DNA of 64,000 nucleotides, from IMG/VR virus record IMGVR_UViG_3300043137_000338; one strand, given 5' to 3'. Of this stretch, positions 2,181 through 58,416 are shown piece after piece (within the stretch, counting starts at the first letter, position 1; each line of letters starts with the position of its first letter). Under the pieces are notes generated by a model that was not told the origin of the DNA, did not search any database, and saw only the letters and a program-made list of their open reading frames with translations. The DNA is from a virus. The translations under genes were made by a program, and so were the position numbers.

Positions 2181-2735
2181 ATGGCAGACTATGTTGATAA
2201 TGCTAAATTTTTAGCTGCAATTAAAGAACACAAAGAATTAATTAAGATCGCAGCTGAAACTGGGAAAGAACCTCCAATCATTAGCAATTATATTGGTGAG
2301 TGTATTCTAAAAATAGCCACGCATTTATCATATAAACCAAATTTTATTAATTACTCATATCGCGATGATATGATTCTTGATGGTGTAGAAAATTGCATAC
2401 AATATTTCAATAATTTTGACGCGGATAAGTATAGCAATCCATTTTCTTATTTCACGCAGATAATTTATTACGCCTTCTTGCGCAGGATTCAAAAAGAAAA
2501 GAAACATTCCTACATAAAGAATAAACTAATTCAAGAGATACCGTTTGATGTATTTGCACTACAAGATCAAGATGATATTGGTGATTATAAAAATATGTAT
2601 ATCGATTATATGCAAAGCAATACCTCATTCGATGATTCTTTCTTAACAAAGAAAAAGCCAGCCAAAGCTAAACCAAAAAATCCTTCTCTCAACGATTTTA
2701 TAGAGACTGATACTGATGAGTCAGAACAACAATGA
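2181..2735 (+). CDS. 55: late-transcription sigma factor gp55
   Basis: 184 aa; length and sequence pattern match T4 gp55 (185 aa), including ..NYIGECILKIA.. and ..YSNPFSYFTQIIYYAFLRRIQKEKK.. Confidence 0.8.
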   Translation: MADYVDNAKFLAAIKEHKELIKIAAETGKEPPIISNYIGECILKIATHLSYKPNFINYSYRDDMILDGVENCIQYFNNFDADKYSNPFSYFTQIIYYAFLRRIQKEKKHSYIKNKLIQEIPFDVFALQDQDDIGDYKNMYIDYMQSNTSFDDSFLTKKKPAKAKPKNPSLNDFIETDTDESEQQ

Positions 2736-13733: not shown

Positions 13734-14396
13734 ATGAAACTATCTAAAGACACCCTAGCCATTTTTAAGAACTTCGCTTCCATCAACAGCAATATCCTGT
13801 TGAAGCCAGGAACGAAGTTGTCAACCATTTCAGCAATGAAGAACGTCATGTCCGATGTTACCATTGCTGAAACTATCCCATCTGAAATTGGTATCTACGA
13901 CCTGAATGAATTCTTGGGTGCAATGTCACTGTTCAGTGACCCTGAACTCGATTTTGCAGAGAAGTATATCAACATCAAAGAGGGTGATGCCAATATCAAG
14001 TTCTATGGTGCGGATGCTTCTGTCTTGACTGTTCCTAGCAAGAGCATCACTTTCCCTGCCAGCGACGTTGACTTTACCTTGACCGCAGCTATGCTAGATA
14101 TGATCCGCCGCACTGCATCTGTTCTTCGCGCTGAAGATTTGTCCATCGTTGGTGACAGTGCTCGCTTGATGCTTCAAGTCGGAGACAAGAAGAATGCAAC
14201 TGGTAACAACTACAACAAGTTGGTTGGAACTACCGATAAATCTTTCCATGTAAACTTGAAGGTTGAAAACCTGAAGATGTTGGCAGGTGACTACGCAGTT
14301 AGCATCTCTAGCAAGAAAATCTCTAGGTTCAAAAGCGTCTCCACTGATTTGGTTTACTACGTAGCTGTTGAGGCAGATTCAACGTTTGACGCTTAA
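13734..14396 (+). CDS. 45: sliding clamp gp45
   Basis: N-terminus MKLSKDT..FKNFASINSNILLKPG nearly identical to T4 gp45 MKLSKDTTALLKNFATINSGIMLKSG; 220 aa. Confidence 0.9.
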   Translation: MKLSKDTLAIFKNFASINSNILLKPGTKLSTISAMKNVMSDVTIAETIPSEIGIYDLNEFLGAMSLFSDPELDFAEKYINIKEGDANIKFYGADASVLTVPSKSITFPASDVDFTLTAAMLDMIRRTASVLRAEDLSIVGDSARLMLQVGDKKNATGNNYNKLVGTTDKSFHVNLKVENLKMLAGDYAVSISSKKISRFKSVSTDLVYYVAVEADSTFDA

Positions 14397-20627: not shown

Positions 20628-21200
20628 ATTTTTATTTTCGATGTAGAAACCCTTGGCGTTGAATCTAATTCTGTTGTTCTTTCTGCAGCATTGATTTATT
20701 TTGACCCTGAAGAAAAGCCTGACTATCAGAAACTCTTGGATGATGCTATCTTTGTTAAGCTGAATGCCAAAGATCAGATCCAAAGACTCAAACGTAGCGT
20801 TGATGTTGACACGCTTGAGTGGTGGAAGAATCAGCATGAATTTGTTCGTGCTCTTTCATTCGATCCGAAACCCGATGATATGCCAGCTGAAGATGCAATC
20901 ACTGCACTGCACAACTATATGAACAAGTATCCGAATGCAAACAAACATACCATGTGGGCACGAGGTTCTCTTGATCAGTTGGCTATTGATAGCTTGGCAA
21001 GGAAAGTTGACATGCAGCCTATAACGGGGTATAATATGTGGAGAGATATGAGAACAGCAGTTGACCTGCTTAGTGGTTCCAGCAATGGATACTGCGATAT
21101 CGAACACCCAACTTTTAAGAGACACGAAGTCATCAAACACCATCCGGTGCATGACTGTGCTCTCGACGCGATGATGCTGCTATACGGAAAGAGTGCTTAA
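20628..21200 (+). CDS. dexA: exonuclease A DexA (DEDD 3'-5' exonuclease)
   Basis: IFIFDVETLG (exo I), LEWWKNQ and HHPVHDCALDAMMLLYGK match T4 DexA FDFIIDFETMG / TIEWWKNQ / AHDSIHDCAKDILMMKYA; the N-terminal motif lies upstream of the first ATG, so an ATT (20628) or ATC (20622) start after AGGAG is inferred. Confidence 0.65.
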   Translation: MFIFDVETLGVESNSVVLSAALIYFDPEEKPDYQKLLDDAIFVKLNAKDQIQRLKRSVDVDTLEWWKNQHEFVRALSFDPKPDDMPAEDAITALHNYMNKYPNANKHTMWARGSLDQLAIDSLARKVDMQPITGYNMWRDMRTAVDLLSGSSNGYCDIEHPTFKRHEVIKHHPVHDCALDAMMLLYGKSA

Positions 21201-23686
21201 TGAAGTTTTATACAAATGTATATCCACTTGGTAATAGGTTAGCAGTAAGGGGTTATGAAGACGGAATTCCCTTCAACGAAAAGCGCGAATTCTTTCCAAC
21301 CCTCTATGTTCCATCCAAGAAGCCCGACAGTGAATGGCGGACTCTGGATGGAACAGTCGTTGATGAAGTCCATCCTGGAAGTATCCGTGACACGCGTGAG
21401 TTCGTTAAGACTTACGAAGGTGTTGAGGGATTCCAGATCTATGGTAACACCAACTACACTTACCAGTATTTAAGCGATAACTACCAGTCAGATATCCTAT
21501 GGGATATGGATCTGATTCGTGTATTCACATTCGACATTGAAACCAAAACAGAAAACGGTTTCCCAGATATCAAGAATGCCAATGAAGAAGTTATCCTAAT
21601 TACAATCACAGACTCTAAACTCAAAGAGACTATTACGTTTGGTACTAAACCTTACGTGAACAAACACGAAAACGTCCGCTTCATCATGTGTGATAGCGAG
21701 ATCATGTTGTTCCGTGAATTCTTAAACTATTGGTCTAAGAACTACCCTGATGTTATCACTGGATGGAACACTAACCTATTCGACATTCCGTATCTTGTTC
21801 GTCGCATTGAACGAGAACTTGGCGAGAACAGTTCTAACAAACTGTCACCACATGGTATCGTCAATGAGCGTAAGATCTTCATCAAGGGTAATGAAGAGTT
21901 GTCCTATGACATCCAAGGTATTGCACACTTAGATTATCTTGATCTGTATAAGAAGTTTACCTACACGAAGCAAGAGTCTTATCGTCTTGATTATATTGCA
22001 GAGGTTGAACTTGGCGATAACAAGAAAGAGAATCCTGGCGAGGACTTCAAAGACTTCTATACAAACTACTGGCAACAGTTCGTTGATTATAACATTCAAG
22101 ACGTTGCACTGGTTGTTCGTCTAGAAGATAAGATGCGTCTAATTGAACTGTGTTTAACCATGGCATATCAAGCCAAGATCAACTACGAGGACGTCTTCAG
22201 TCCAGTTCGTATGTGGGATGCCATCATCTATAATCACCTGCGTGATGAAGGTATCGTTATTCCCCAGAAGGAATACTCAGGTAAAGATGCTCAGTTCGAA
22301 GGTGCGTTCGTTAAAGATCCACTGATTGGTTTGCATAAGTGGGTTGCTTCCTTTGACTTGAACTCTTTGTACCCTCACTTGATCATGCAGTATAACATGT
22401 CTCCGGAGACTTTGAGCCACGAGAAGATTAGCTGTACAGTGGATAAGCTGCTTAATAAAGAAGTTGATACTTCCTATGCCAAGGAAAAGAACTTAGCATT
22501 GACTGCGAACGGCTGGTGTTATCGTAAAGACGTCAAGGGGTTCTTACCCAAGCTGATGGAAAAGATGTATACTGACCGAAGCAAGTTCAAGAAGCAGATG
22601 TTGAAGATTGAACAGCAGTATGAACACGACAAGAGTAACAACGACCTACGTAAAGAGATATCGCGTCTGAATAATCTGCAGATGGCTATGAAGATTGCAC
22701 TTAACTCAGCTTATGGTGCGCTTGGTAATTCGTACTTTCGTTACTTTGATCTACGGTTAGCTGAAGGTATCACGACTTCGGGTCAACTGTCTATTCGTTG
22801 GATGGCTAATGAATTCAACAAGTACATGGATCGCATCCTGAAGACCAAGGGTAAAGATTACATCATTGCGATTGACACTGACTCGATTTATCTTTCGCTT
22901 GAAGCTCTGGTCGAGCATACCTGTGTTGATAAAACTACTGAGCAAAAGATCAAGTACATGGATAAGATCTGTAATGAGATCTTCCAACCGTTCATCGATG
23001 ATACGTATCAAGAATTGGCTGATTATATGAATGCCTATGATCAGAAGATGCAGATGAAGCGAGAAGTTTTGGCAGACAAGGGTATCTGGACTGCCAAGAA
23101 GCGTTACATTCTGAACGTCCATAACTCTGAAGGTGTGCAGTACGCAAAGCCTAAGATTAAGGTCATGGGTTTGGAGATGGTCAAGTCCTCTACGCCTGCC
23201 GTTATTCGTAAAAAACTTAAAGATTCAATCAACGTTATTCTTGCCGGAGAACAAGAGGTTCTACATAAGTATATTGAGGACTTTAGAACAGAGTTTAATA
23301 AACTAAGTGTTGAACAGATAGCTTTCCCTCGTGGTGTGAATGGTATGAAGCAGTATGCCGGATCTCCTATCTACACAAAGGGTACTCCTATTCATGTTCG
23401 TGGATCGTTGCTGTTTAATCACTATGTGAAGAAGCTATCCCTGGGTAATAAATATCCTCTCATTAGAGACGGTGATAAGATTCGATTCATCTATGTGAAG
23501 AAACCAAATCCATTTCACGAGGATGTTATTTCCTTTAGTCAAGAACTACCCAAGGAATTTAACATACATAAGTATATCGACTATGAACTACAGTTCCAGA
23601 AAACCTTTCTTGATGCACTGTCAACTATTATTGAACCACTTGGTTGGAAAACCGAACAACAATCTTCATTGGAGGACTTCTTTTGA
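21200..23686 (+). CDS. 43: DNA polymerase gp43 (family B)
   Basis: Exo motifs FDIETK and YNIQDV, polymerase motifs DLNSLYP, KIALNSAYG and IDTDS; 828 aa. Confidence 0.9.
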   Translation: MKFYTNVYPLGNRLAVRGYEDGIPFNEKREFFPTLYVPSKKPDSEWRTLDGTVVDEVHPGSIRDTREFVKTYEGVEGFQIYGNTNYTYQYLSDNYQSDILWDMDLIRVFTFDIETKTENGFPDIKNANEEVILITITDSKLKETITFGTKPYVNKHENVRFIMCDSEIMLFREFLNYWSKNYPDVITGWNTNLFDIPYLVRRIERELGENSSNKLSPHGIVNERKIFIKGNEELSYDIQGIAHLDYLDLYKKFTYTKQESYRLDYIAEVELGDNKKENPGEDFKDFYTNYWQQFVDYNIQDVALVVRLEDKMRLIELCLTMAYQAKINYEDVFSPVRMWDAIIYNHLRDEGIVIPQKEYSGKDAQFEGAFVKDPLIGLHKWVASFDLNSLYPHLIMQYNMSPETLSHEKISCTVDKLLNKEVDTSYAKEKNLALTANGWCYRKDVKGFLPKLMEKMYTDRSKFKKQMLKIEQQYEHDKSNNDLRKEISRLNNLQMAMKIALNSAYGALGNSYFRYFDLRLAEGITTSGQLSIRWMANEFNKYMDRILKTKGKDYIIAIDTDSIYLSLEALVEHTCVDKTTEQKIKYMDKICNEIFQPFIDDTYQELADYMNAYDQKMQMKREVLADKGIWTAKKRYILNVHNSEGVQYAKPKIKVMGLEMVKSSTPAVIRKKLKDSINVILAGEQEVLHKYIEDFRTEFNKLSVEQIAFPRGVNGMKQYAGSPIYTKGTPIHVRGSLLFNHYVKKLSLGNKYPLIRDGDKIRFIYVKKPNPFHEDVISFSQELPKEFNIHKYIDYELQFQKTFLDALSTIIEPLGWKTEQQSSLEDFF

Positions 23687-25993: not shown

Positions 25994-26004
25994 GATTCAA
26001 AATT

Positions 26005-26029
26005 TTATAAATAGTTGTAGGAGGAAACT
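26005..26029 (+). promoter_or_regulatory. T4-type late promoter TATAAATA + AGGAGGAAAC RBS cassette (endonuclease-gene cassette)
   Basis: TATAAATAGTTGTAGGAGGAAACTATG; near-identical cassettes at 58625, 60224 and 61731. Confidence 0.7.
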
Positions 26030-26734: not shown

Positions 26735-27260
26735 ATCGATAACACCTGTTGGTAAAAAGAAGGTATATGACATTTCAGTAAAGGATGTTGAACATTATGT
26801 GTTAGAAAATGGAGTAGTTACTCATAACACTGGTTCTTACTACTCTGCTGACAATATCTTCATTCTTGGTCGTCAACAAGAAAAAGACGGAACTGAAATT
26901 GTTGGTTACAACTTTATCATCAACGTAGAAAAGAGTCGTTATGTTCGTGAGAAATCTAAAATACCTGTTAGCGTATCTTTTGACGGCGGCATTAGCCGTT
27001 GGTCTGGCTTACTTGACATTGCTCTAGAATCTGGACATGTCGTTAAACCAAGCAATGGATGGTACAGCAAAGTAGATCAAGATGGCGTTGTTGAAGATAA
27101 AAAGTATCGTCTGAAGGATACCGATAGCAAAGACTTCTGGCTTCCAATTATTCAGCAAAAGACTTTCTCTGAGTTTGTTAAAAATAAGTATCAAGTTTCG
27201 ACTTCAGAAATTATGAAGGGTGAAGACATTGATGCTGAACTTGCGTTGATTGGAGACTAA
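26724..27260 (+). CDS. uvsX: split-intein C-fragment (35 aa) fused to UvsX C-terminal extein
   Basis: KVYDISVKDVEHYVLENGVVTHN (intein blocks F/G) then TGSYYSADNIFILGRQQEKDGTEIVGYNFIINVEKSRYVREKSK.. which continues the T4 UvsX sequence TGPMYSADTVFIIGKRQIKDG..; ATG 26724 with AAAGGAAAC. Confidence 0.85.
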   Translation: MKIKSITPVGKKKVYDISVKDVEHYVLENGVVTHNTGSYYSADNIFILGRQQEKDGTEIVGYNFIINVEKSRYVREKSKIPVSVSFDGGISRWSGLLDIALESGHVVKPSNGWYSKVDQDGVVEDKKYRLKDTDSKDFWLPIIQQKTFSEFVKNKYQVSTSEIMKGEDIDAELALIGD

Positions 27261-27262: not shown

Positions 27263-27631
27263 ATGTATGAAGTTCCAGATGATTGGGAACTTCCGCCGCA
27301 TCAAGTTGTTAAACACAAAGATGCGGTTGGAGTTGATGCGATAAAGTTGCTCGCCGAGCCATATTCAGGTATAATAGTGTCTTACGGTAAGGTGTCTTTT
27401 GATACGATCCGAGGCGACGCTGACGAAGAGCATGTGACGATGAAGTTTGACTACACGATGCATGAATCTGCTGGGAAAGACTTCACAGCAAAACAGTTAA
27501 AAGACTTCGAAGTGTACTTGGGTGAATTTCTAAGAGATCTTATCATTTACGGTATCAAAGAAAATAATATAGCATATACAGGCGGTGTTGATGACTCTAG
27601 AGAAAACGATTCTTTCAAATCTCATCAATAA
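27263..27631 (+). CDS. hypothetical protein (gene 40 position between uvsX and 41)
   Basis: 122 aa; T4 gp40 is 120 aa at the same position; no sequence motif checked. Confidence 0.35.
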   Translation: MYEVPDDWELPPHQVVKHKDAVGVDAIKLLAEPYSGIIVSYGKVSFDTIRGDADEEHVTMKFDYTMHESAGKDFTAKQLKDFEVYLGEFLRDLIIYGIKENNIAYTGGVDDSRENDSFKSHQ

Positions 27632-28988
27632 TGAGGAGTATTGCAGAAAGGTAGTTCCACATCTTAAGAAAGAATACTTTGCGGATCGCAAAGATGCTAT
27701 GATCGCAAGTCTTGTTGTTTCCTTCTTCACGAAGTACAATAAGACAGCATCTACAGAAATTCTGGCTATTGAGATCGCCAACCTCAAGGGGTTGACTGAC
27801 AAAGAAGTCCCAGAATATACTGAATATCTTCAAAGTCTAAACACTCAAGAAAAGAACCAAGAATGGCTGCTTGAGCAAACAGAGCAATTCTGTAAAGACC
27901 GAGCAGTTTACAACGCCATTCTTGCTTCCATTAAAATCATTGAAGGAAAAGACCAAGTCCACAGTAAGGATGCGATCCCTTCATTGTTGTCTGAAGCACT
28001 TGGCACTTGCTTTGACAATCACATTGGTCATGATTACATTGAGAATGCTGAGGAACGATTTGACTTCTATAACAGAATAGAAGAAAAGATTCCGTTCGAT
28101 TTGGAGATGTTTAACCTTATCACTAAAGGTGGTCTGTCTCGTAAAACTCTAAACATTGCGCTTGCCGGCACTGGTGTTGGTAAGTCTTTGTTCATGTGTC
28201 ACGTGGCAGCTGGTGCACTAACCAAGGGTAGAAATGTCTTATACATAACTATGGAAATGGCTGAGGAGCGCATCGCAGAACGTATTGACGCGAATCTCTT
28301 GAACCTGACCATGGATGAATTGAAGGTTGTTGATAGAGAAGTCTTCAATACGCGTATTGGTAAAATCGCTAAAAAGACTCAAGGTAAGCTAATCGTCAAA
28401 GAGTATCCTACTGCATCAGCGCACGCTGGACATTTCCGTGCCTTGTTAGAAGAGCTAAAGCTAAAGCGAGAATTCATCCCTGACATTATCATGATCGACT
28501 ATTTAAACATCTGCGCTTCTCAACGTATGAAGCAGGGAGCGAATGTAAATTCTTATACATATGTAAAGGCAATCGCTGAAGAGCTTCGTGGTCTGGCAGT
28601 AGAGTACAACGTTCCGATTATTTCGGCAACTCAAACTACCAGAGGTGGTTTCACGAATAGCGATCCAGGATTGGAAGATACTTCAGAATCATTCGGCTTG
28701 CCTGCCACTGCTGACTTTATGTTTGCCTTGGTATCAAACGAAGAACTTGAGCAGTTGAATCAGATCATCGTTAAGCAATTGAAGAACCGTTACAATGATC
28801 TGAACTACTATAAGAGATTTGTTCTTGGTATTGATCGCTCGAAGATGAAACTCTATGATGTTGAGATTTCTGCTCAAGAAGGTTTGTCCGACGCAGGTAA
28901 ACGAAGCCATGATGACGGTCCGATGTTTGATAAGAGTGAATTCGGTAAACGGTTGAAGACAGATGGCTACGAAGGTTTTAAGTTCTAA
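27591..28988 (+). CDS. 41: replicative DNA helicase gp41 (DnaB-like)
   Basis: Walker A LAGTGVGKS, YITMEMAEERIAERIDANLL and the VKAIAEELRGLAVEYNVPIISATQ arginine-finger region parallel T4 gp41; intact, no intein. Confidence 0.88.
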   Translation: MTLEKTILSNLINNEEYCRKVVPHLKKEYFADRKDAMIASLVVSFFTKYNKTASTEILAIEIANLKGLTDKEVPEYTEYLQSLNTQEKNQEWLLEQTEQFCKDRAVYNAILASIKIIEGKDQVHSKDAIPSLLSEALGTCFDNHIGHDYIENAEERFDFYNRIEEKIPFDLEMFNLITKGGLSRKTLNIALAGTGVGKSLFMCHVAAGALTKGRNVLYITMEMAEERIAERIDANLLNLTMDELKVVDREVFNTRIGKIAKKTQGKLIVKEYPTASAHAGHFRALLEELKLKREFIPDIIMIDYLNICASQRMKQGANVNSYTYVKAIAEELRGLAVEYNVPIISATQTTRGGFTNSDPGLEDTSESFGLPATADFMFALVSNEELEQLNQIIVKQLKNRYNDLNYYKRFVLGIDRSKMKLYDVEISAQEGLSDAGKRSHDDGPMFDKSEFGKRLKTDGYEGFKF

Positions 28989-28998: not shown

Positions 28999-30300
28999 AT
29001 GGTAAAGGTTATTGTCGCTGATAGAAAACATGATTGCACTCATTTGTTGGGTCAATTTCTAGACGAGTCTCACTACGATGTTCTGTTGGAAGAAGATTGT
29101 GATGTGTACGCTCCGCCAGAATATGGTGATTCGATTGAGAATAAGGACGAGCGTAGAATCATCATGAAGTTTCGCAAGAACTTCTTCACCAAAGAACAGC
29201 AGGATGCTGCCTATGCAGGTCTACGTGAAGCTGCCATCGAAACTCAGAACAGAGGTTTGGCTGCAGGTCCGCGTGCTGATAAGTTAGGCAATCGCGATTG
29301 GGTCACTGAGTATGAGTATGACATGGTTGACTATTTTCTCAAGCCAACTGGTAACCTGTTCGGCGAAGATCCAGTAGAAGAAATTCGTAAGAAGCATGCT
29401 TCTAAGAAAGGTGTCATCTCGAATCGTTCCAATGTATGGTCCATTGACCGTGTTCAGAAAGATAAGTTCAACTTTGAAGCATGGGTAGATGCCACTAAAA
29501 TTCTTTCCGAGGATGAGCAGATTGCTTCCGCCAAGTACGTGGCTGAGAAACTGATCTGCGCCACCACCTATGCTAACTCTGTTAACTCTGGTATTGCTGG
29601 TTGGTTCGATCGCTATCCACGCATCCCTTATGGTCGCGCCACTTCTTATACTCAGAAGAATCCTGAGAAGTTTGCCATGGCTTTTCCTTTCCTACAAACC
29701 CTTGCTGCTGGATTTAAAGATTTGCTCCCATGGCGTTATGGGAATCAAATGGAAGCTGCTTCGAAGATTGATAAGCAATTCCTGGTTCCTGGAACACCAT
29801 TCACCACTGTAACTGTTAACAAAACTTTCCGCACAGCTGCTCACTACGATGCCGGTGACTTGACTAGCGGGTTGTCTAACTTGTTGACTCTATCCAACGA
29901 TGGTCGTTACAGCGGTGCTTACCTTGTTGCACCTGAGTATCGTGTAGCTGTTAACGTTCGTCCCGGTGATTTGCTTCTGATCAACAACCATGAAGTTATG
30001 CACGGAAATACTCCTATCGTCTGTCAAGAAGGTTCTGAGCGTATTTCGCTTGTGGTTTACTTCCGTGAGAAGATGCTTGAGCTCGGTACTAAGGAATATG
30101 AAGACTGTCGATTTGACTTTGTTGAATCTCGTCGTCTAAATAAAGAACATCCAGAGTGGCGTCCACTCTGGAATGGTGTTGGTTCTGGTATGTGGGAAAG
30201 CCAAGACTGGTATGACTACCTAGAATCGAAGATGGGAACTACTGTTTTGCAGAAGTATCATCCAGACTCTGTTAAATCTTCGCTTGAAGACTTCTTTTAA
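28999..30300 (+). CDS. 2OG-Fe(II) dioxygenase-like protein (possible nucleic-acid base oxygenase)
   Basis: HxD AAHYDAGD and distal His NNHEVMHGNTPI; ATG 28999 with AAGGAG. Confidence 0.45.
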   Translation: MVKVIVADRKHDCTHLLGQFLDESHYDVLLEEDCDVYAPPEYGDSIENKDERRIIMKFRKNFFTKEQQDAAYAGLREAAIETQNRGLAAGPRADKLGNRDWVTEYEYDMVDYFLKPTGNLFGEDPVEEIRKKHASKKGVISNRSNVWSIDRVQKDKFNFEAWVDATKILSEDEQIASAKYVAEKLICATTYANSVNSGIAGWFDRYPRIPYGRATSYTQKNPEKFAMAFPFLQTLAAGFKDLLPWRYGNQMEAASKIDKQFLVPGTPFTTVTVNKTFRTAAHYDAGDLTSGLSNLLTLSNDGRYSGAYLVAPEYRVAVNVRPGDLLLINNHEVMHGNTPIVCQEGSERISLVVYFREKMLELGTKEYEDCRFDFVESRRLNKEHPEWRPLWNGVGSGMWESQDWYDYLESKMGTTVLQKYHPDSVKSSLEDFF

Positions 30301-30314
30301 ACTGAAAGATAATT

Positions 30315-31661
30315 ATGAAAATTTTAATGGTAATGCATACGTTCAATAACTTCGGTGGTATCATCAATCACTGTGAACATTTGATGGCTGGTTTAAAAGA
30401 GCTTGGTCACGAAGTTAACTTTGCATATTTGAAGGGTAATAAAACTGTTCGCCCAGTTCAGATTCCTGAAACGCTGGGTGAAGGATGGGAGATTGGTGTT
30501 GGCTCAGGTTATCCTGTCCACCAGGGTGATGGTTGGATGGCACCTTACTACTCTTACAAAGTTAAAGAGTCTATCAATAAATTCGTTGAGGATGCTAACA
30601 AACATGACATCGTAATCTGGCAATCTATCTTTGGATTTAAGAACAAAGACACTGAGAAAGATGTCAACTGGCTGCCGATGATCGAGAAGGTTAAAGCGAA
30701 ACAAGTTGCCATTATTCATGACGGTAATCTGAAGAAGTTGTATACTTGGATTCAATTGTTCGAACAACATTTTGCAGGTCTGGCATGTGTGCATCCTGCA
30801 GCGTATGATTCAGCTGACTTCATGAACGTTCCGCGTGCAATGATTCTGAACCCACAAGACATCGCTGGTATTCCTGAGACTCCAAGATATGCTGGTCGTG
30901 AGAACAAGATCCTTTCTATTCAAACATTCAAGCGTTGGAAGCGTGTTGATGACTTAGTTCGTGCAGTTCCACACATGCCAATGGTTAAAACTCTGGTAGG
31001 TGGTTATGGTATGGAAGCTGCATACATGATGTCCAAGGAAAAGTGTAAGGAAGAATACTACTGTACGAAGGAGTATGATCCAGATGCAACTGACAAAATG
31101 TTGGGTAAGCGTATCTGGGAAAATGCTGAAAACTCTGGCACCTTCGACTACCTTGGCTTTATCTCTGGCGGTAAGCGTGATGAGATCCTAACTACATCTA
31201 AATTTCTTGTAGATCCAAGCTGGTCAAATACCTATGGCGAGCATTTCAACCGTGTGGTGATTGATGCCATGCGTATTGGTACTGTTCCCATTGCAATTAA
31301 CTACGGTGTTTCCAACAACGAAGAAGGTAATGGAGTTGTTCTAAAGGCAGGTATCAATTATTGTATGTTGAAGCGTTCTTATACACCAAGACAATACGCT
31401 GAAAAAATCACAGAGTACTGCGATATGAGCCCAGAAGCATACAAACAGATTCAGTTGAACAACTATGAACTGATTAAACAGTTTGATCGTAAGGTGATCG
31501 CTCAGCACTATGTCGATCTCGCAATGGGTAAGCAAACTGGTTATCTAAATGAATTGAAGACCAAATCTAATCACGACCCTAAGCTGCCAAAGCTGGCTCG
31601 TAAAATGTTTGATGAACACTTTGAAGATAACACTGTAGATCTAGAATCTTTCTTTGGTTGA
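30315..31661 (+). CDS. GT-B fold glycosyltransferase (GT4-like)
   Basis: N-terminal MKILMVMHTFNNFGG..HEV motif and C-terminal E..E nucleotide-sugar motif NTYGEHFNRVVIDAMRIGTVPIA. Confidence 0.65.
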   Translation: MKILMVMHTFNNFGGIINHCEHLMAGLKELGHEVNFAYLKGNKTVRPVQIPETLGEGWEIGVGSGYPVHQGDGWMAPYYSYKVKESINKFVEDANKHDIVIWQSIFGFKNKDTEKDVNWLPMIEKVKAKQVAIIHDGNLKKLYTWIQLFEQHFAGLACVHPAAYDSADFMNVPRAMILNPQDIAGIPETPRYAGRENKILSIQTFKRWKRVDDLVRAVPHMPMVKTLVGGYGMEAAYMMSKEKCKEEYYCTKEYDPDATDKMLGKRIWENAENSGTFDYLGFISGGKRDEILTTSKFLVDPSWSNTYGEHFNRVVIDAMRIGTVPIAINYGVSNNEEGNGVVLKAGINYCMLKRSYTPRQYAEKITEYCDMSPEAYKQIQLNNYELIKQFDRKVIAQHYVDLAMGKQTGYLNELKTKSNHDPKLPKLARKMFDEHFEDNTVDLESFFG

Positions 31662-31703: not shown

Positions 31704-32618
31704 ATGGCAACAGCAAATACAATACTATCAGATATCAATGAAATCTACACTGGCTACGTTCTAAACGGAAACGAATGGTACGACAACGCTGCTAAACAGC
31801 AATTTAACGAGAGATGCAAACAAGCAAATGCTGATGAAGTAGCTGATGCTATTGGTAAATCTGCAGTGATGGCAGAAGAATTCATTAAGTGGGCGAAACA
31901 AAATGGATATAAGACTCCAATAGTAGGGGTCTGGTGGACTGCTCGTCCAGGTTCTATGGCTGATGCCTTTGGAGAACCAGTCGATCAGAAGAAAAATCCT
32001 ACAGACATCTTAGTTAAATTTAACTCTGGTCCATCTAAAGGATTCCTCGGTCTGTCAGCTAAAGCTACTCAAGGCAAAGGTGATATCGGATTTAAGAATC
32101 CAGGTGTTGGAACTGTTGATAGAAACCTTGGACTTAAACTTGGTGAAGAATATAAGAATCAGTTGGCGCAAACAATTAAAAAGTTTAATCTTCCTCCATC
32201 TGACACTCTGAGAAAACCATATATTCGAGAAAATCCTGGAATTAAAAAACAGACTGAAGAGATCGGTGTAAAGGTTTTAGCAGCTATGCGTGATGTTATG
32301 ATGCTGCGTTTACAGAAAATGAAACAACCCGAGCTAAAGAAATATCTGCTATCAGATTGGATGGATGCTGAAGTTATATCTCCTCCCTATATTAAAGTTA
32401 CTGGTCAAGGGAACAAAGCACCATATAAAGCAATGGTTATGGATCCAATTAATAATCCAAAACTAGATGCTCTTAGTAAATACGATATCAAGTTAGAGAT
32501 CGTTGGTAATGAATCAATCGGTGTATCTGCTGGTAGTAAAAAGATAATGAAGATTCGATTTAAATTTGAATCTGAAAAGATGGCATCATCAGTAAAGTTG
32601 TCCGGAGACCCCTGGTAA
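31704..32618 (+). CDS. hypothetical protein
   Basis: ORF only. Confidence 0.35.
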   Translation: MATANTILSDINEIYTGYVLNGNEWYDNAAKQQFNERCKQANADEVADAIGKSAVMAEEFIKWAKQNGYKTPIVGVWWTARPGSMADAFGEPVDQKKNPTDILVKFNSGPSKGFLGLSAKATQGKGDIGFKNPGVGTVDRNLGLKLGEEYKNQLAQTIKKFNLPPSDTLRKPYIRENPGIKKQTEEIGVKVLAAMRDVMMLRLQKMKQPELKKYLLSDWMDAEVISPPYIKVTGQGNKAPYKAMVMDPINNPKLDALSKYDIKLEIVGNESIGVSAGSKKIMKIRFKFESEKMASSVKLSGDPW

Positions 32619-32678: not shown

Positions 32679-33914
32679 ATGAAGTTGAAAAGTTTAAAGA
32701 CCTACATAGTCGAGGAAAAGAACACCCACATGGAACACCTCGAGGACCTAGTCTTCAACGAAGGTGTAGCTGGCACTCGCAAGGCGATCAACTTCCTACG
32801 TGACCTCCGTGACATGCTTGCAGGCAACTCTGCTTCCAAAGTAACTGCCACTGTGAAGTGGGACGGCGCACCAGCTATCTTTGCTGGTATTGATCCAAGA
32901 GACGGAAAGTTCTTCGTAGCTAAGAAGGGTATCTTCAATAAAGAGCCTAAAGTTTATAAGACTTCAGCCGAGATTGATGCTGAGTTGTCTGGAGATCTAG
33001 CCGATAAATTCAAGATCGCTCTCTCTGAATTCTCAAAGCTAGGCATCAAGTCTGGTGTTTATCAAGGTGACCTTATGTTCACTGACGATAAAAAGATCGA
33101 GATCATCGACGATGAGAAGTATGTTACCTTTCATCCAAACACTATCGTTTATGCCATTCCTTACTCTAGCGAGTTAGGTGCTAAGATTCGTTCTGCCAAG
33201 ATCGGTATCGTTTGGCATACTACCTACGAAGGTAAGTCTTTTGAGACTATGTCTGCTTCCTTTGGTAAAGGTATCGTTGAGAAGTTCAAGGATGTTTCTA
33301 GCATCTGGATGGACGACGCTAACTATAAAGACTACTCTGGTACTGCTACTTTCACTAAGTCAGAGACTGCTGCAGTAACTAAAATGCTTTCCGATGTTGG
33401 TTCTATGTTTCAAGCTACGAACCCTCTAACTCTCAATGCAATATCTAGAGACGAAGATCTATTGATGCAGGTTAAAACCTACAACAACTCCAAGATCAAA
33501 GCCAATACTCCTATCACTGATATCAATGCGCATGTCACTGGGCTTTTCGACTACATTCATGATAAGTTCCAGAAGGAAATCGAGTCCAAGAAAACTCAAA
33601 AGGGTAAAGACGTTCAAGAAGAAAAGCGTAAGAAGATTCTAGCTTTCTTCGCTAATCATGATAAACGTGAGATCGTTAAGATCTTTGAGATAGCTGAGAA
33701 GCTAACCACTATCAAAGAAATGATCATCAACAAGATGAACGAAGCTGGACATATCTCCACGTTCATCAAGACTTCTTCTGGATTCAAAGTTACTGGAGTA
33801 GAAGGTTTTGTTGCCATTGATCACCTATCCGGCGGCGCTGTTAAGATCGTCAATCGTATGGAATTTAGCAAGGCTAACTTCTCTTCTGAAGTAATTAAAG
33901 GGTGGCAAAGATGA
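32679..33914 (+). CDS. putative covalent nucleotidyltransferase (RNA/DNA ligase-like, KxDG)
   Basis: VKWDGAPAIF motif-I-like lysine and downstream DG/K motifs; weak. Confidence 0.35.
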   Translation: MKLKSLKTYIVEEKNTHMEHLEDLVFNEGVAGTRKAINFLRDLRDMLAGNSASKVTATVKWDGAPAIFAGIDPRDGKFFVAKKGIFNKEPKVYKTSAEIDAELSGDLADKFKIALSEFSKLGIKSGVYQGDLMFTDDKKIEIIDDEKYVTFHPNTIVYAIPYSSELGAKIRSAKIGIVWHTTYEGKSFETMSASFGKGIVEKFKDVSSIWMDDANYKDYSGTATFTKSETAAVTKMLSDVGSMFQATNPLTLNAISRDEDLLMQVKTYNNSKIKANTPITDINAHVTGLFDYIHDKFQKEIESKKTQKGKDVQEEKRKKILAFFANHDKREIVKIFEIAEKLTTIKEMIINKMNEAGHISTFIKTSSGFKVTGVEGFVAIDHLSGGAVKIVNRMEFSKANFSSEVIKGWQR

Positions 33915-36241
33915 AAAAATTTACAGAATATAAAGAGAAACAAAACATTATTCCTGAGGAAGTTAAAACTCCAAAACCACAAAACATTGAGCTACTAGAA
34001 TCTTTTTCTAATAACTACAAAAAATTCAGTGATGCTATCGAAAAAGCTGAACTACTAGAGTCTTTCTTCAATGGCGGAGATAGTTCAGTAATAATGCAGC
34101 GTGATGAGATAGAACAATTATTTCTATCTCACTTATTGGTTGTCAATGAAAATATAGAATATCTTAAAAAAGATCTAACTAAAATTAACGAATCTGATAT
34201 GAATCTTCTATCAGATTTAATACAACATGTTGATAAAAAAACTAATAAAATTATTAGATATATTAATGAAGAAGTTCCAAAAAATAAAAAGAAAATTATT
34301 GAGACAGAATTCAACATTAATAAAGCACTTTCTTTAACTAAGAAACATGTAGATGAACTACAGGAATTTGTAGATTCAGAAACTGATATATTCAATAATT
34401 TAAATTCTAAGATTGATTATATTAATGAATTAGTAGAAAGTAATAAAAATAAGTTAATTGAAACAGAATTTAATACCAATAAAGCTCTTTCTTTAAATAC
34501 TGAAGCATTAAAGAATACCGAAACTAAACTAGAAAAACTAGAGTCAGTTGTAGAAGCAGAATCCCATAATCTAAATCTTCTTAGTGTTAAACTACAAGAA
34601 GCTAGTGAATTAACTGCAACAAATAAAGAAACTTTACTAACTGATATTAAATATCTATATTTCGATATAGAATCTGTTGGAACTAAAGTTAAGTCTTTGT
34701 CTGAAAAATATGATAATTCTATAACGCCATTTTTAGATAAAATTAATAAGTTTCAAGAAAAAATTGATACTATTAATAGCGTAAATGAAGAATATAACAA
34801 AACAATAGATAAAACTAAGAAAGAAATAGTTGAGACTATTAGAGAAGTAAATTCTATTTTTATCAATTCAAAGTACGATGAATTAGATACTAAGATAGAT
34901 AAAGTTAATAAGTTATATGAAGAATTAAATACAGTTAACGTTGTTAAGGCTAAGCTGAATGAGGTAACTCCTCCTGCAGCATCTCCAGTACAACCTTATA
35001 TCCAAAGTCAAGAGATAGTTGGATTAAACAATAAGATTAAATTCCTAGAAAGAGCCATTAGTAGAATTGCTGCTACTGGTCCAGGTTCAGGTGAAGTTAA
35101 TTTAAGATGGTTAGATGACGTTGATAGGGCAACAATTGGTGATGGTAAGTATCTAAACTATAACGCTACAACTAAGAAGTTTCAGTTCTCTACTGTTAGT
35201 GGTGGAACTGGTGGATCTTTCTCTGGTTCTTATAATGACTTAACTGATAAACCTACAATACCAGCTGCTCAAGTTAATAGTGACTGGAATGCAGTTAGTG
35301 GGTTAGCTCAGATTTTAAACAAACCAACTTTGTTTAGTGGTTCTTATACAGACTTAACTAACAAGCCAAGTATTCCTAGCTTGACTGGATATGCTACAGA
35401 AACATATGTTGGAACAGCAATTTCTAATTTAGTTAATACTGCTCCTGCTACACTCGATACACTAAATGAGCTTGCTGCCGCGCTGGGAAATGATGCTAAC
35501 TTTTCTACCACAATTGCAACTACCTTAGGAAATAAAGCAGATAAAACTGAACTATTTTCTCGTGCCTATGCTGACTTGACAGGTAAACCTACTCTATTCT
35601 CTGGTGCCTATGCTGACCTGACTGGTAAGCCAACTTTGGGAACTATCAGTTCTCAGAGCGATTCTAGCGTAAGTATTACTGGTGGCTCGATAAACGGAAC
35701 GACCGTAGGTGCTACAACTCCAGCCACAGGATCATTCACTACTCTGATTGGCGGCGCAGGGTCTGCAAATTATGTACAAGTAGTCGGCGCAGCAGCAGCA
35801 GGAATTCCTGTTATATCTGCTCAGGGTTCTGATACAAACATTAACTTAACCCTAACACCAAAAGGTACGGGTCGTGTGATTGTTACGACTGGTATTAAAG
35901 CGCGTGTTAATTCAATTGCCGTTGCTGCAGGCACAACTTCACAAAGTTGGACTAGTGATTCCTACGATCAGTACAATTTAACTTTGTCTAACACAGCAAC
36001 ATTGACGATTGGCTTAGATACTGGAGTTCCTACAGACGGACAGAAAATGATGTTCCGCATTAAAGATGATGGAACAGTTCGCAATATTGCTTGGACTACT
36101 AGCGGAACCAACTGTTTTAGAGTTGTTGGAACAACACTGCCTACATCAACGACTACTATTAACAAACTAACTTATGTTGGTTGTGTTTATAATGCCGCAG
36201 ACTCTCGCTGGGATGTAATTGCAGTTGGTCAGGAAGCGTAA
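33902..36241 (+). CDS. fibrous protein: coiled-coil N-half with internal duplications, C-half with phage tail-fibre repeats (YxDLTxKPT)
   Basis: Repeats SGSYNDLTDKPTIP, SGSYTDLTNKPSIP, RAYADLTGKPTLF and SGAYADLTGKPTLG; duplicated IETEFNxNKALSL blocks. Confidence 0.6.
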   Translation: MAKMKKFTEYKEKQNIIPEEVKTPKPQNIELLESFSNNYKKFSDAIEKAELLESFFNGGDSSVIMQRDEIEQLFLSHLLVVNENIEYLKKDLTKINESDMNLLSDLIQHVDKKTNKIIRYINEEVPKNKKKIIETEFNINKALSLTKKHVDELQEFVDSETDIFNNLNSKIDYINELVESNKNKLIETEFNTNKALSLNTEALKNTETKLEKLESVVEAESHNLNLLSVKLQEASELTATNKETLLTDIKYLYFDIESVGTKVKSLSEKYDNSITPFLDKINKFQEKIDTINSVNEEYNKTIDKTKKEIVETIREVNSIFINSKYDELDTKIDKVNKLYEELNTVNVVKAKLNEVTPPAASPVQPYIQSQEIVGLNNKIKFLERAISRIAATGPGSGEVNLRWLDDVDRATIGDGKYLNYNATTKKFQFSTVSGGTGGSFSGSYNDLTDKPTIPAAQVNSDWNAVSGLAQILNKPTLFSGSYTDLTNKPSIPSLTGYATETYVGTAISNLVNTAPATLDTLNELAAALGNDANFSTTIATTLGNKADKTELFSRAYADLTGKPTLFSGAYADLTGKPTLGTISSQSDSSVSITGGSINGTTVGATTPATGSFTTLIGGAGSANYVQVVGAAAAGIPVISAQGSDTNINLTLTPKGTGRVIVTTGIKARVNSIAVAAGTTSQSWTSDSYDQYNLTLSNTATLTIGLDTGVPTDGQKMMFRIKDDGTVRNIAWTTSGTNCFRVVGTTLPTSTTTINKLTYVGCVYNAADSRWDVIAVGQEA

Positions 36242-45280: not shown

Positions 45281-46306
45281 ATGCTATACATTGATACAAA
45301 ATTTGCAGCGATCCTTGGTTCCCGTCTAAAGAACTTCAAGCAGAAAGCTGATTATCTATGGAACTACTCTTGTCCTGTTTGTGGCGATAGTTCTAAGAAT
45401 AAACTAAAGGCACGCGGATACATATTTCGTCGCAGCACAGAACTTCTGTGTAAGTGCCACAACTGCAGTTATTCTACTAATCTTGGTAATCTTATCAAGT
45501 ATGTTGATCCTAATCTATACAATGAATATGTGCTAGATCGTTACAAAGGTGGCGCTTCTAAGTACACTGATCACAAAAATGCAGGCGCAATTCTTCCTGC
45601 GCAAACTCCCACGAAAGATTTACTTGAGGATGACATCCTAAGTAGCATCACACGCATAGATTTGCTCTCTGAGAATCATCCTGCAGTTAAATTGGTTTTG
45701 AAGCGGAAAATTCCAAAGAACAAGTGGCATCTTCTTTACTTTGCACCGAAGTTTAAGAAGTATACCAATTCTGTAGTTCCAAAATTCAGAGAACCTTTCG
45801 TTGATGATCATCCAAGAATGATCATCCCATTGTTCACTTCTGCTGGCAAGTGTTTTGCTTTTCAGGGTAGAGCATATGGTCCAGAGGAACCTAAGTATTA
45901 CATCATTAAGGTTGATGAGACTCAAGAAAAGATTTTTGGTCTAGACCGCATTGATTACAGCAAACATATCTATGTGGTCGAAGGTCCGATCGATTCTCTA
46001 TTTCTACCAAACTGTATTGCAGTATCTGGTTCTAGCTTTGATACACCCACAGTTCGACAGATCATGACCAACTGCACCATTGTTATGGATAACGAACCGC
46101 GCAATAAGGATATCGTTAAGCAGATGAAGAAATATATAGATCTCGGTTATAGTGTTTGTATGTATCCAGATACTGTAGTTGAGAAGGACATAAATGATAT
46201 GGTCTTGTCTGGGCGCACTCAAGAACAGATTTTAGAGTTAATAAATACGAATACCTTCACAGGTATGGAAGCGCAATTGAAATTTACGAAATGGAGTAAA
46301 GTATGA
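45281..46306 (+). CDS. 61: DNA primase gp61
   Basis: N-terminal zinc ribbon CPVCGD..CKCHNC, TOPRIM-like ..VVEGPIDSLF..; 341 aa against 342 aa in T4. Confidence 0.8.
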   Translation: MLYIDTKFAAILGSRLKNFKQKADYLWNYSCPVCGDSSKNKLKARGYIFRRSTELLCKCHNCSYSTNLGNLIKYVDPNLYNEYVLDRYKGGASKYTDHKNAGAILPAQTPTKDLLEDDILSSITRIDLLSENHPAVKLVLKRKIPKNKWHLLYFAPKFKKYTNSVVPKFREPFVDDHPRMIIPLFTSAGKCFAFQGRAYGPEEPKYYIIKVDETQEKIFGLDRIDYSKHIYVVEGPIDSLFLPNCIAVSGSSFDTPTVRQIMTNCTIVMDNEPRNKDIVKQMKKYIDLGYSVCMYPDTVVEKDINDMVLSGRTQEQILELINTNTFTGMEAQLKFTKWSKV

Positions 46307-46986
46307 AAGTAAGAATTATTAGTTATAGTAAGCCTTCTCGTGAGATGTACGATGAAGGTTTAACTGATGTGCAGGAATTGATTGCGTTTTGTGCCAGAGT
46401 CAGTAACCCAAGCAACCAGTTTAACATGGAAACTTCTGAGAAACTGATCAAGTATCTGATCAAACATCAGCACTGGTCACCCCTAGAAATGGTGTCTGCA
46501 TGTTTAGAAATCGAAACCACTCGTGATATTGCTCGCCAGATTCTACGTCATCGCAGCTTTTCCTTTCAAGAATTCTCTCAACGTTATGCTGATCCAACCA
46601 AGGATCTTTCATTCGTTACGCGTGAAGCTCGACTGCAAGATACTAAGAATCGTCAAAACAGTATCGATCTGGATATGACATCCGAAGATGATCGGTTTCT
46701 CGTTGCAGATTGGAAGCGCCGACAACAAGAAGTTATTGAACTTGCTAAGGAGCATTATACTTGGGCAGTTGAAGCTGGTATCGCAAAAGAACAAGCGAGA
46801 GCAGTTCTACCAGAAGGTTTAACTGTATCGCGGATGTATATGAATGGCACGCTGCGTAGCTGGATTCACTATATGGAACTGCGCGCTGGTGTTGAGACAC
46901 AAAAAGAACATAGAGAAATCGCGCTTGAATGCGCAAAAATTATCGCTGAGGTATTTCCCTTGGCAAATGATATTGTACAAAAATAA
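46303..46986 (+). CDS. thyX: flavin-dependent thymidylate synthase ThyX
   Basis: ThyX signature RHRSFSFQEFSQRY. Confidence 0.85.
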   Translation: MKVRIISYSKPSREMYDEGLTDVQELIAFCARVSNPSNQFNMETSEKLIKYLIKHQHWSPLEMVSACLEIETTRDIARQILRHRSFSFQEFSQRYADPTKDLSFVTREARLQDTKNRQNSIDLDMTSEDDRFLVADWKRRQQEVIELAKEHYTWAVEAGIAKEQARAVLPEGLTVSRMYMNGTLRSWIHYMELRAGVETQKEHREIALECAKIIAEVFPLANDIVQK

Positions 46987-56897: not shown

Positions 56898-57218
56898 GTG
56901 AAGAAAGTCTTTTTGATCGCCGCTGTTGCTGTCGCCTCTGTTGGTATTTTGGCATCGGCACCTGCTTGTGCTCAAAATCATAGGCACCAGCACCATAACG
57001 GAACTCGTGATATTATTATCGGTACCGTTATCGGTGGTGTTGTGACCGGAGTTATTATGAACTCGCAGCGCGGTCAAGTTATCGTACAACCGCAAGTTGT
57101 ATATCAGCCTGAGCCGATGCCTGTTTATCAACCTGCACCAAAACAGTACTGTGAAGTAAAATTCATTCAAGATCAATTTGGTCAGGTTCGCGAATTTACT
57201 GCTTGCTACTATCGCTAA
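56898..57218 (+). CDS. small secreted His-rich protein
   Basis: GTG 56898 after AAAGGA; signal peptide KKVFLIAAVAVASVGILASAPACAQ; HRHQHH. Confidence 0.45.
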   Translation: MKKVFLIAAVAVASVGILASAPACAQNHRHQHHNGTRDIIIGTVIGGVVTGVIMNSQRGQVIVQPQVVYQPEPMPVYQPAPKQYCEVKFIQDQFGQVREFTACYYR

Positions 57219-57219
57219 T

Positions 57220-57657
57220 ATGAAACAGAAATGGATTGATGCATTCATGGATACTGCTGAGCGTTTTGCTCAGCTGAGTTCTGCCACCAGGTTGAAGGTG
57301 GGTGCAGTGGTAGTCCAAGAAAACCGTATAATCTCCATCGGCTATAATGGAATGCCAGCTGGCTGGAGTAATGAGTGTGAAGAAGAAATTGTTGTCGATG
57401 TCGACGACAAGTGGTTGGTAACATTGAAAACAAAAGATGAGGTTATTCATGCAGAAGCTAATGCAATTCTCAAGTTGGCACGCGATGGTGAACGAGGCAC
57501 TGGCGCCAGCATATTCATCACTCATGCTCCTTGCATCAACTGTGCTAAGTTGGTCTACGGCGCTGGAATCAAGAACGTTTACTACCGTAACAGCTACCGT
57601 GACACCGCTGGTGAAGACTTTCTGGTGAAGTGCGAAATAAATGTTGAAAAAACTTGA
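57220..57657 (+). CDS. cd: dCMP deaminase
   Basis: Zinc-binding HAEANAI..HAPCINCAKL; ATG 57220. Confidence 0.85.
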   Translation: MKQKWIDAFMDTAERFAQLSSATRLKVGAVVVQENRIISIGYNGMPAGWSNECEEEIVVDVDDKWLVTLKTKDEVIHAEANAILKLARDGERGTGASIFITHAPCINCAKLVYGAGIKNVYYRNSYRDTAGEDFLVKCEINVEKT

Positions 57658-58243: not shown

Positions 58244-58337
58244 CCATATTAAAACATATTATCTGAGTACAAGGCTCAGTGCTACGAAGCAAAATGTCTA
58301 GCAAGCCTCAAGAGGAAGCTATAGTGTGTTTTAATAT

Positions 58338-58398: not shown

Positions 58399-58416
58399 CC
58401 AAACGAGTTCTTAGGT

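Follow-up and report, generated by a model that had tools for sequence, protein, structure and literature searches.

A TET/JBP-Family Dioxygenase and a Glycosyltransferase with Polymerase-Type C-Terminal Tails: Candidate Thymine Hypermodification in a T4-like Phage

Introduction

What do an Fe(II)/2-oxoglutarate (2OG) dioxygenase and a glycosyltransferase do when a phage encodes them directly behind its replicative helicase? The question is raised by a 64,000-nucleotide stretch of the virus recorded in IMG/VR as IMGVR_UViG_3300043137_000338 (the whole stretch is called the window below), in which genes for a 433-amino-acid (aa) oxygenase and a 448-aa glycosyltransferase, here TET and GT, lie side by side. 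An earlier sequence-only reading had likened the pair to the JBP/TET-plus-glycosyltransferase systems that hydroxylate and glycosylate bases in DNA, and as far as genomics reaches our analysis supports that proposal. We consider it roughly 65% probable that TET and GT carry out a two-step, post-replicative hypermodification of DNA on thymine. Both enzymes also end like the phage's own DNA polymerase, which makes them probable ligands of the gp45 sliding clamp.

Phage hypermodification initiated by TET/JBP enzymes is already known: predictions date back to 2013, and demonstrations followed between 2021 and 2026. One subclass of these enzymes needs a ParB-like activator. The locus described here is a distinct variant, with a larger enzyme, no ParB detectable by Pfam, a T4-like replication-module setting, a GT-B enzyme in place of a TAGT and a putative clamp-binding tail.

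Results

The Oxygenase Has the Fold and Active Site of the TET/JBP Family

Both open reading frames (ORFs) that the sequence-only reading had named exist on the + strand, at 28999-30300 and 30315-31661. Their features are as follows.

28999..30300, + strand: TET/JBP-family (5mYOX) Fe(II)/2OG dioxygenase, 433 aa; predicted thymine-C5-methyl hydroxylase on DNA
29842..29850, + strand: HxD iron ligands H282-Y-D284, aligned with the TET2 HRD motif
30001..30042, + strand: distal iron ligand H335 and 2OG-binding R348 (RISLVVYFR), aligned with TET2 'HATTP...RISLVFY'
30277..30297, + strand: TET C-terminal tail SSLEDFF, predicted gp45-binding epitope
30315..31661, + strand: GT-B (GT4-like) glycosyltransferase, 448 aa; predicted to glycosylate a hydroxymethyl base in DNA
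31638..31658, + strand: GT C-terminal tail DLESFFG, predicted clamp-binding epitope

The oxygenase belongs to the TET/JBP family and has its fold, with the catalytic residues intact. The Pfam model Tet_JBP (PF12851) recognizes it over profile positions 12-164 of 164, with 88.7 bits where the gathering score is 34.9 (E=3.3e-25); TauD-type Pfam models score below threshold on it. The HxD...H triad that had been read from the motifs AAHYDAGD and NNHEVMHGN is present: H282, D284 and H335 do not vary in any of the three alignments (A1, A2 and A4), of which A4 holds 68 homologues with identity down to 27%, and R348 is invariant in A1 and A2 and conserved in at least 90% of sequences in A4. When the family profile was compared with all PDB sequences, TET2 was the best match, aligned over both the HxD half and the H...R half; the TET2 counterparts we take to be H1382, D1384, H1881 and R1896.

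Structure leads to the same family. With an AlphaFold model built from an alignment that included the S-CBWM1 subfamily (pLDDT 87.9, pTM 0.75), the top 26 Foldseek matches in the PDB are TET2, CcTet, NgTET1 or CMD1 (E 4e-11 to 2e-8), and the next tier, FTO/AlkB, follows at E ~2e-5. TET-type structures thus rank first in the comparison of TET/JBP with AlkB/P4H enzymes, and a placement in a protein-hydroxylase or small-molecule clade, the outcome that the sequence-only reading had named as counting against it, did not occur. Among predicted viral structures, the model of a 287-aa phage TET/JBP protein superposes on that of the 433-aa protein with a TM of 0.90; judging from the models, the latter is the usual phage core with N-terminal and helical insertions and a C-terminal extension. 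Pfam finds in it neither the J-DNA-binding domain of JBP1 nor the SNF2 ATPase domain of JBP2, in which it differs from the JBPs of the base J pathway.

We prefer the 433-aa start (28999) to a 445-aa start (28963) because an AAGGAG ribosome-binding site precedes its ATG by 7 nt and TET homologues begin at the same MVKVIV N terminus. TET has 2583 database homologues, the best 120 of which have identities of 70% or more and lengths of 432-460 aa; GT has 286, with identity down to 56% among the matches listed. Since both proteins also exceed the Pfam gathering scores, neither is a chance ORF.

Two observations concern the wider family. Many TET homologues (P0002, P0047, P0085, P0090 and Cr30) have a Cys-rich insertion of ~14-17 residues after residue 40 (C..C...C..C, possibly a zinc ribbon; A1 columns ~58-75) that is missing from the window protein. 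The label 'SNF2 DNA repair protein' on the TET/JBP homologues of DLP6, Cr30, S-CBWM1 and HTVC112P is misleading, as these have no SNF2 domain; it was probably inherited from JBP2.

The Glycosyltransferase Is Probably a Divergent GT-B Enzyme

As the earlier reading had it, a GT4-like glycosyltransferase directly follows the oxygenase: GT starts 14 nt past the TET stop and matches Glycos_transf_1 (PF00534) above threshold, at 36.8 bits against a cut-off of 26.4 (E=3.6e-9). The N-terminal Glyco_transf_4 match, at 15.6 bits, is below threshold. The motif E309-x7-D317, a variant of E-x7-E, is invariant, and a profile search of the PDB aligned it, weakly (E ~0.3-0.5), with the E-x7-E region of the glycogen synthase GlgA; a single-sequence search gave no PDB match, and NCBIfam gave nothing useful. 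Since GT matches PF00534 and not PF20691, it is not a member of the TAGT/JGT GT-A family. These sequence features mark GT as a probable, divergent GT-B enzyme, and a retaining mechanism, hence an alpha linkage, is plausible from its GT4 membership.

Both Enzymes End in a Polymerase-Type Tail

Does anything in the two proteins suggest where they work? The following genes of the window bear on this.

21200..23686, + strand: gp43 DNA polymerase (Pfam DNA_pol_B); C terminus ...QQSSLEDFF at 23663-23683
2181..2735, + strand: gp55 late sigma factor (phrog_234, E=9e-58); SLNDFI near the C terminus at 2685-2702
13734..14396, + strand: gp45 sliding clamp (Pfam gp45-slide_C, DNA_PPF)
14463-15413 and 15735-16118: clamp loader (Pfam AAA and Gp44_lid; phrog_225 clamp loader)

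TET ends in ...VKSSLEDFF, so that its last seven residues are identical to those of gp43; GT ends in ...VDLESFFG, and gp55 reads ...NPSLNDFIETD... close to its end. The T4 proteins end in ...KASLDFLFG (gp43) and ...PSLDFLYEAND (gp55), and this SLDFL[FY] tail is an established gp45-binding epitope that is interchangeable between the two (PMC2988020). A recent DNA copy between the gp43 and TET tails was considered and rejected, as their codons differ.

To count the tail, we defined its strict form as L-x-x-F-[FL]-x(0-2) at the C terminus and clustered every ORF of 89 loci and the window all against all.

TET: 83/88
gp43: 40/42
GT-B: 5/5
TAGT: 5/5
GNAT-like cassette protein: 31/32
Amino-acid:DNA transferase (AADT): 8/40 (commonest other tails GLE[MNA]F)
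All other ORFs (background): 4/939

Two of the four background cases are short contig-end ORFs with gp43-like tails and may be gp43 fragments. In a large database, 116 of 120 close TET homologues and 82 of 120 GT homologues end in the strict tail, the printed non-strict GT tails being variants of the DLESLFG type. It is found in 0/44 members of the S-CBWM1-type TET subfamily. GT keeps the tail even in two loci without TET. The tail forms the low-confidence end of the TET model, where it is presumably flexible.

Because both enzymes end in the polymerase's hydrophobic-acidic C-terminal epitope, we predict that they dock on gp45. By sequence and by analogy to T4, we regard such docking, and with it clamp-tethered modification, as likely. 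Clamp association of a DNA glycosyltransferase has precedent, since the T4 alpha-glucosyltransferase (alpha-GT) binds gp45 experimentally (Sommer 2004; confirmed in PMC13216743). We found no published description of the epitope on TET/JBP enzymes or their partners in a literature whose coverage is incomplete, and its presence on an oxygenase and the oxygenase's partners appears to be a new feature.

Stenotrophomonas phage DLP6, whose TET is 50% identical to that of the window, encodes a 287-aa hypothetical protein (AAY80_028; L001 5057-5920) two genes upstream of the TET homologue. It ends in ...DLSSFFN and, to judge from this ending, may be another clamp-tethered enzyme.

TET and GT Travel Together, and GT Occupies a Variable Cassette

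Are the two genes partners or chance neighbors? Of the 73 loci in which 1.5 kb of sequence or more precedes a GT homologue, 71 (97%) also have a TET homologue. The gap between them is 3-70 bp in 39 of the 71 paired loci; most of the others have one small gene between the two, and TET lies downstream in five. Since gp41 is upstream of the pair in only 32/57 loci, the pair moves as a unit and is found at several genome positions.

At least 586 IMG/VR stretches encode a TET relative. In the 80 closest loci and three long contigs, where TET is 67-95% identical, the order gp41, TET, variable cassette, DUF6267 recurs, and the cassette families are distributed as follows.

GATase_6: 59 loci
AADT (PF18724): 40 loci
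238-aa HExxH protein: 36 loci
GNAT-like protein, ~219 aa: 32 loci
P-loop nucleotide kinase 3 (PF18751): 29 loci
335-aa unknown protein and HAD-like protein: 7 loci
TAGT (PF20691): 5 loci
Window-type GT-B: 1 of the 80 loci

In this lineage TET is conserved and the tailoring cassette behind it is interchangeable, GT being one of several kinds. The kinase and AADT set is established machinery of 5-hydroxymethyluracil (5hmU)-based thymidine hypermodification, and TAGT is the base-J glucosyltransferase family; TAGT was found only in sister loci (L005/L006) and in Synechococcus phage S-CBWM1. The window has no homologue of the other cassette genes, and GT is its sole tailoring enzyme. Glycosylation downstream of TET is a recurrent theme, since distant TET homologues also adjoin TAGT or sugar-nucleotide genes: in S-CBWM1 a distant homologue is followed by TAGT, an HAD phosphatase, a glucose-1-phosphate thymidylyltransferase and an APH-type kinase, and in phage C48C1 by an unknown protein and a UDP-galactopyranose mutase.

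The 238-aa protein (L004 12728-13444 and 35 other loci; cluster C2) has a HELIHxxQ motif, which is HExxH-like, and no Pfam family. It accompanies the AADT, TAGT and 335-aa cassette types and is missing from the window and from L007.

The Pair Lies Behind gp41 in a T4-like Replication Module

The window comes from a T4-like myovirus, and nearly all its genes are on the + strand. It opens with UvsW, gp55, gp47/46, CobS, the gp45 clamp, the gp44/62 loader and RegA, continues with an ATP-dependent DNA ligase, gp43, two small 2OG oxygenases, a fractured UvsX, gp41, TET and GT, and has, further along, structural-like genes, primase, thyX, ribonucleotide reductase, RNase H, cd and a block of 20 tRNA genes. 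The same genes are also present on JGI contigs 64 kb and 139 kb in length (the latter Ga0377190_000067). TET and GT gave zero megablast matches in 50,697 phage records, and the phage has no close cultured relative at the DNA level; its gp43 is ~55% identical to cyanomyovirus gp43. The other genes that bear on the pair are:

27585..28988, + strand: gp41 replicative helicase (Pfam DnaB_C), 10-nt gap to the TET start
31704..32618, + strand: 304-aa protein in the slot between GT and DUF6267, not assigned to the module
32679-33914: DUF6267 protein, downstream of the 304-aa gene
18611-19918: ATP-dependent DNA ligase, the true ligase of the window
46303..46986, + strand: thyX, judged from the ORF and the RHRxxxxxxxS ThyX motif only
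57178..57657, + strand: dCMP deaminase gene cd, judged from the ORF and the HAE...PCxxC motif only

The sequence-only reading had placed the pair between gp41 and a ligase-like gene. The upstream half of this order stands, gp41 being directly adjacent. The downstream half does not, since the genes there have no ligase signature: first comes a 304-aa protein without a match in Pfam, PHROG, NCBIfam or PDB, then the DUF6267 protein, for which the ligase-like reading was rejected since Pfam finds no ligase domain. Because the gaps are 10 and 14 nt and neither the gp41/TET nor the TET/GT junction has a listed terminator-like site on the + strand, gp41, TET and GT are probably co-expressed, or co-transcribed, with the replication genes. 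A promoter and terminator scan around the module gave no signal above shuffled expectation.

The slot between the cassette and DUF6267 is hypervariable. Where the window has its 304-aa protein, L007 has an unrelated 343-aa protein between flanks that are 99% (GT) and 97% (DUF6267) identical to those of the window, and other loci (including L005, L088 and L089) have proteins of 308, 406, 438 or 458 aa. Several of these slot proteins show a D...(S/H)xK pattern that recalls PD-(D/E)xK nucleases, in the window's 304-aa protein as D...SxK, an identity that we do not claim for them. Between gp43 and UvsX lie the two small 2OG-Fe(II)/cupin oxygenases, at 23644-24261 and 24515-25066; they are of the P4H-like 2OG-FeII_Oxy_3 and Asp/Arg-hydroxylase types, unrelated to TET, and do not have the tail.

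Gene Content Favors Thymine as the Substrate

Is the methyl group that TET would oxidize that of thymine or of 5-methylcytosine (5mC)? Phage 5mC dioxygenases have a directly adjoining C5-methyltransferase (C5-MT) and T-dioxygenases are without one, and phage 5mYOXs that lack a neighboring C5-MT have been found experimentally to oxidize T to 5hmU (O'Toole et al., 2026; PMC13229309). The same inference was drawn for metagenomic contigs that carry a TET_JBP gene in place of the dUMP hydroxymethylase (Lee et al., 2021; PMC8989533). We found no C5-MT motif in the 64-kb window, no C5-MT among its Pfam-scanned ORFs or the cassette families scanned (~170 loci) and none in the 10 kb further upstream on the 139-kb contig. 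The window encodes thyX and cd, as the earlier reading had stated, and its scans revealed no hydroxymethylase. Since the phage makes ordinary dTMP through thyX, any 5hmU must arise after replication. With no C5-MT found, thyX and cd present, no hydroxymethylase found, and thymidine-specific cassettes in sister phages, gene content makes oxidation of T to 5hmU the likely first step.

The published T-dioxygenase subclass linked to GATase, kinase and AADT depends on a ParB-like activator (PMC13229309). No Pfam-scanned ORF of the window matches ParB_N, a search that very divergent ParB-like proteins could escape; in five sister loci a 431-aa protein gives a weak ParB_N match (E=0.0037).

Discussion

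How might the two enzymes work together? In the pathway that we propose, TET would use Fe(II), 2OG and O2 to convert the C5-methyl group of thymine in polymerized DNA to 5hmU, the DNA substrate and the choice of T being our inference from the family and its gene neighborhoods. GT would then move a sugar from a host NDP-sugar onto the new hydroxyl, giving an O-glycosyl-5hmU similar to base J; both the transfer step and the sugar are putative. If the tails bind as predicted, clamps left on the DNA after passage of the fork would recruit first the dioxygenase and then GT onto freshly replicated duplex. The likely purpose is to shield phage DNA from host nucleases.

Several points weigh against this pathway, and they are best considered together with the alternatives on which they bear. 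The phage is uncultured and the pathway is one read from genes, and in E. coli some ParB-less phage 5mYOXs of clade C1 showed no activity on either T or 5mC (PMC13229309). The basis of selectivity for T over 5mC is unknown (Burke et al., 2021; PMC8256090), and sequence cannot tell the two apart. The phage GT-B enzymes characterized so far act on 5-hydroxymethylcytosine (5hmC) (Pyle et al., 2023; 10.1101/2023.12.21.572611), and our C5-MT inspection covered about half of the genome, ~74 kb out of at least 139 kb. One can thus envision a cytosine pathway in which a C5-MT of phage or host makes 5mC, TET oxidizes it to 5hmC and GT glycosylates the product, a scheme in keeping with the 5mC dioxygenases that make up all the closest solved structures and with TET89, which acted on both T and 5mC. 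The structural matches cannot separate T from 5mC enzymes, however, since no solved JBP catalytic domain is among the PDB matches. A C5-MT adjoins phage 5mC dioxygenases as a rule, whereas none was found by motif in the window or among the cassette families scanned across ~170 loci, and the kinase and AADT of sister cassettes are 5hmU-specific machinery. On this evidence we hold the cytosine pathway to be distinctly unlikely. It is more improbable still that TET makes 5hmU, or further oxidized forms, in DNA while GT is a mere neighbor directed at a virion protein, the envelope or a small molecule. By sequence GT matches no solved DNA glycosyltransferase, GlgA being its sole PDB match; it is nearest to generic GT4/GT5 enzymes and is annotated in sources as 'involved in cell wall biosynthesis'. 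In addition, TET is missing from the 5 kb around GT in two of the 73 loci, GT there following directly on gp23, the major capsid gene, and DLP6 and Cr30 have a TET without an adjacent GT. Against a mere neighbor stand the 97% linkage, which holds across divergent loci and several genome positions, the slot that GT shares with TAGT and AADT cassettes, and the polymerase-type tail, which GT has even where TET is absent and which would be sensible only for a DNA-directed enzyme.

Clamp docking itself is argued from motif identity, and neither the alpha-GT nor the beta-glucosyltransferase (beta-GT) of T4 has an SLDFL-type tail, so that the tail is not general to DNA glycosyltransferases. The shared ending could instead be a proteolysis signal, a site for another replisome partner (gp32 or gp59) or simply a C terminus typical of the lineage, the enzymes finding DNA by themselves. 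Its spacing is one residue off that of T4 SLDFLF, and characterized phage 5mYOXs work on DNA without a clamp. Even so, we consider this explanation unlikely: the cognate gp43 has the identical tail and the cognate gp55 a similar one, these being members of the two classes whose T4 tails bind gp45 interchangeably, and the tail is rare both among other ORFs (the background of the census) and in S-CBWM1-type TET homologues, where it was never found. A further alternative, that the oxygenase acts on RNA, such as the phage tRNAs, or on protein, has in its favor the 20 tRNA genes of the window, the AlkB/FTO-type enzymes that are its next-best structural neighbors and a PHROG relative annotated as a tRNA enzyme. 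This we regard as very improbable, since DNA 5-methylpyrimidine dioxygenases take all the top places in both sequence and structure comparisons, with a clear drop in score after them, and since the replication-module setting, the tail and the DNA-specific partner enzymes of sister phages all speak for DNA.

How does thymine hypermodification by TET and GT, as we propose it, compare with known systems? Closest are the phage thymine dioxygenases (5mYOX C1/C2; PMC13229309, PMC8256090, PMC8989533), which match the window enzyme in fold and catalytic residues and likewise have no neighboring C5-MT. Their clusters likewise include glycosyltransferases, as in the window, or GATase, P-loop kinase and AADT, as in sister loci, and the ParB-dependent subclass shares with the window enzyme an extended C terminus. 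Those enzymes are ~290-300 aa long, whereas the window enzyme, at 433 aa, has a long helical insertion and extra N-terminal residues. The window also differs in having no ParB-like gene among its Pfam-scanned ORFs, in its T4-like replication-module setting and in the polymerase-type tail of the enzyme, which goes unmentioned in those three papers. The base J pathway of kinetoplastids (JBP1/JBP2 and JGT) follows the same logic, a TET/JBP enzyme converting T to 5hmU before a glycosyltransferase acts. JGT belongs to the TAGT family present in sister phages, whereas the window GT is a GT-B/GT4-like enzyme instead of a GT-A, and the beta-glucosyl linkage of base J contrasts with the alpha linkage plausible for GT.

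Phage clusters of C5-MT, 5mYOX and glycosyltransferase (Pyle et al., 2023) likewise hydroxylate after replication and then glycosylate DNA directly, with GT-A and GT-B enzymes recruited from cell-envelope families. They need an adjacent C5-MT and act on cytosine, however, and no C5-MT was found in the window. T4 is likewise a T4-like phage that glycosylates a 5-hydroxymethylpyrimidine in DNA after replication, but it installs hydroxymethylcytosine before replication through a dCMP hydroxymethylase, and its tailless glucosyltransferases belong to other families. The T4 gp45 ligands gp43, gp55 and gp33 have the C-terminal hydrophobic-acidic motif that is also seen on gp43, gp55, TET and GT of the window. 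Known ligands with this epitope are replication and transcription proteins, and we found no DNA-base-modifying enzyme with it in the literature searched.

Since the tail is shared by the oxygenase and by DNA-directed tailoring enzymes, it would imply their recruitment by the replisome clamp. We give even odds to a broader proposal, drawn from the distribution of the tail, in which gp45 would serve as a tool-belt for hypermodification across a large uncultured T4-like lineage, coupling hydroxylation and decoration to replication; its candidate members, held at the same even odds, would be the thymine dioxygenase, GT-B, TAGT, the GNAT-like protein and some AADTs. By analogy, the replication clamp may supply the tethering role that a ParB-type CTP clamp plays for the ParB-dependent T-dioxygenases, and dependence on a clamp could explain why some ParB-less enzymes are inactive when expressed alone in E. 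coli. If these proposals are correct, hypermodification would be tied mechanistically to replication, analogous to the link between PCNA and DNMT1 in eukaryotes, and co-expression of the cognate clamp and loader might activate 'dead' phage 5mYOXs in heterologous screens. An abundant environmental lineage (thousands of contigs) would then probably have base-J-like or amino-acid-decorated thymines, with relevance to restriction evasion, to bias in long- and short-read sequencing and to enzyme discovery, for example of 5hmU glycosyltransferases for epigenomic tagging.

Other Features of the Window and Related Loci

In one of the two loci where GT follows gp23 (L157 4472-5851), the gene downstream of GT has a weak, below-threshold match to GmrSD_N (E=1.5e-5). 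GmrSD enzymes are nucleases that target glucosylated DNA.

Upstream of gp41, the UvsX gene is fractured (25085-27260). Its N-terminal part ends in a Hint-like block (CLVAGTKIELSDG...) and is followed by a free-standing NUMOD3 homing endonuclease ORF at 26030-26734, and a third ORF begins with an intein C-terminal block (...VVTHNT) that leads into the UvsX C terminus. The arrangement resembles a split intein into which a homing endonuclease has been inserted; UvsX is uninterrupted in relatives, at 351-359 aa.

Two more homing-endonuclease-like genes are present, a phrog_314 member at 3966-4658 upstream of gp47 and a SegE-type GIY-YIG gene at 50776-51201 after nrdB. The tRNA block (58171-63841), whose 20 genes include a 92-nt 'tRNA-Ile(tat)' call, also contains a GIY-YIG/NUMOD3 endonuclease (60250-60876), a 200-aa Cys-rich ORF (58652-59254) and a PD-(D/E)XK protein (61768-62181). 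Together with the endonucleases in UvsX and the tRNA block, the two genes make the window unusually rich in mobile endonucleases.

Finally, we note that 33902-37224 encodes a 779-aa protein with a repeated (S/A)Y(A/T)DLT(G/N)KP(T/S)(L/I) unit and without a Pfam match, and after it a 327-aa protein in which Gly, Thr and Ala are extremely abundant. Both are probably fiber-like structural proteins adjoining the replication module.

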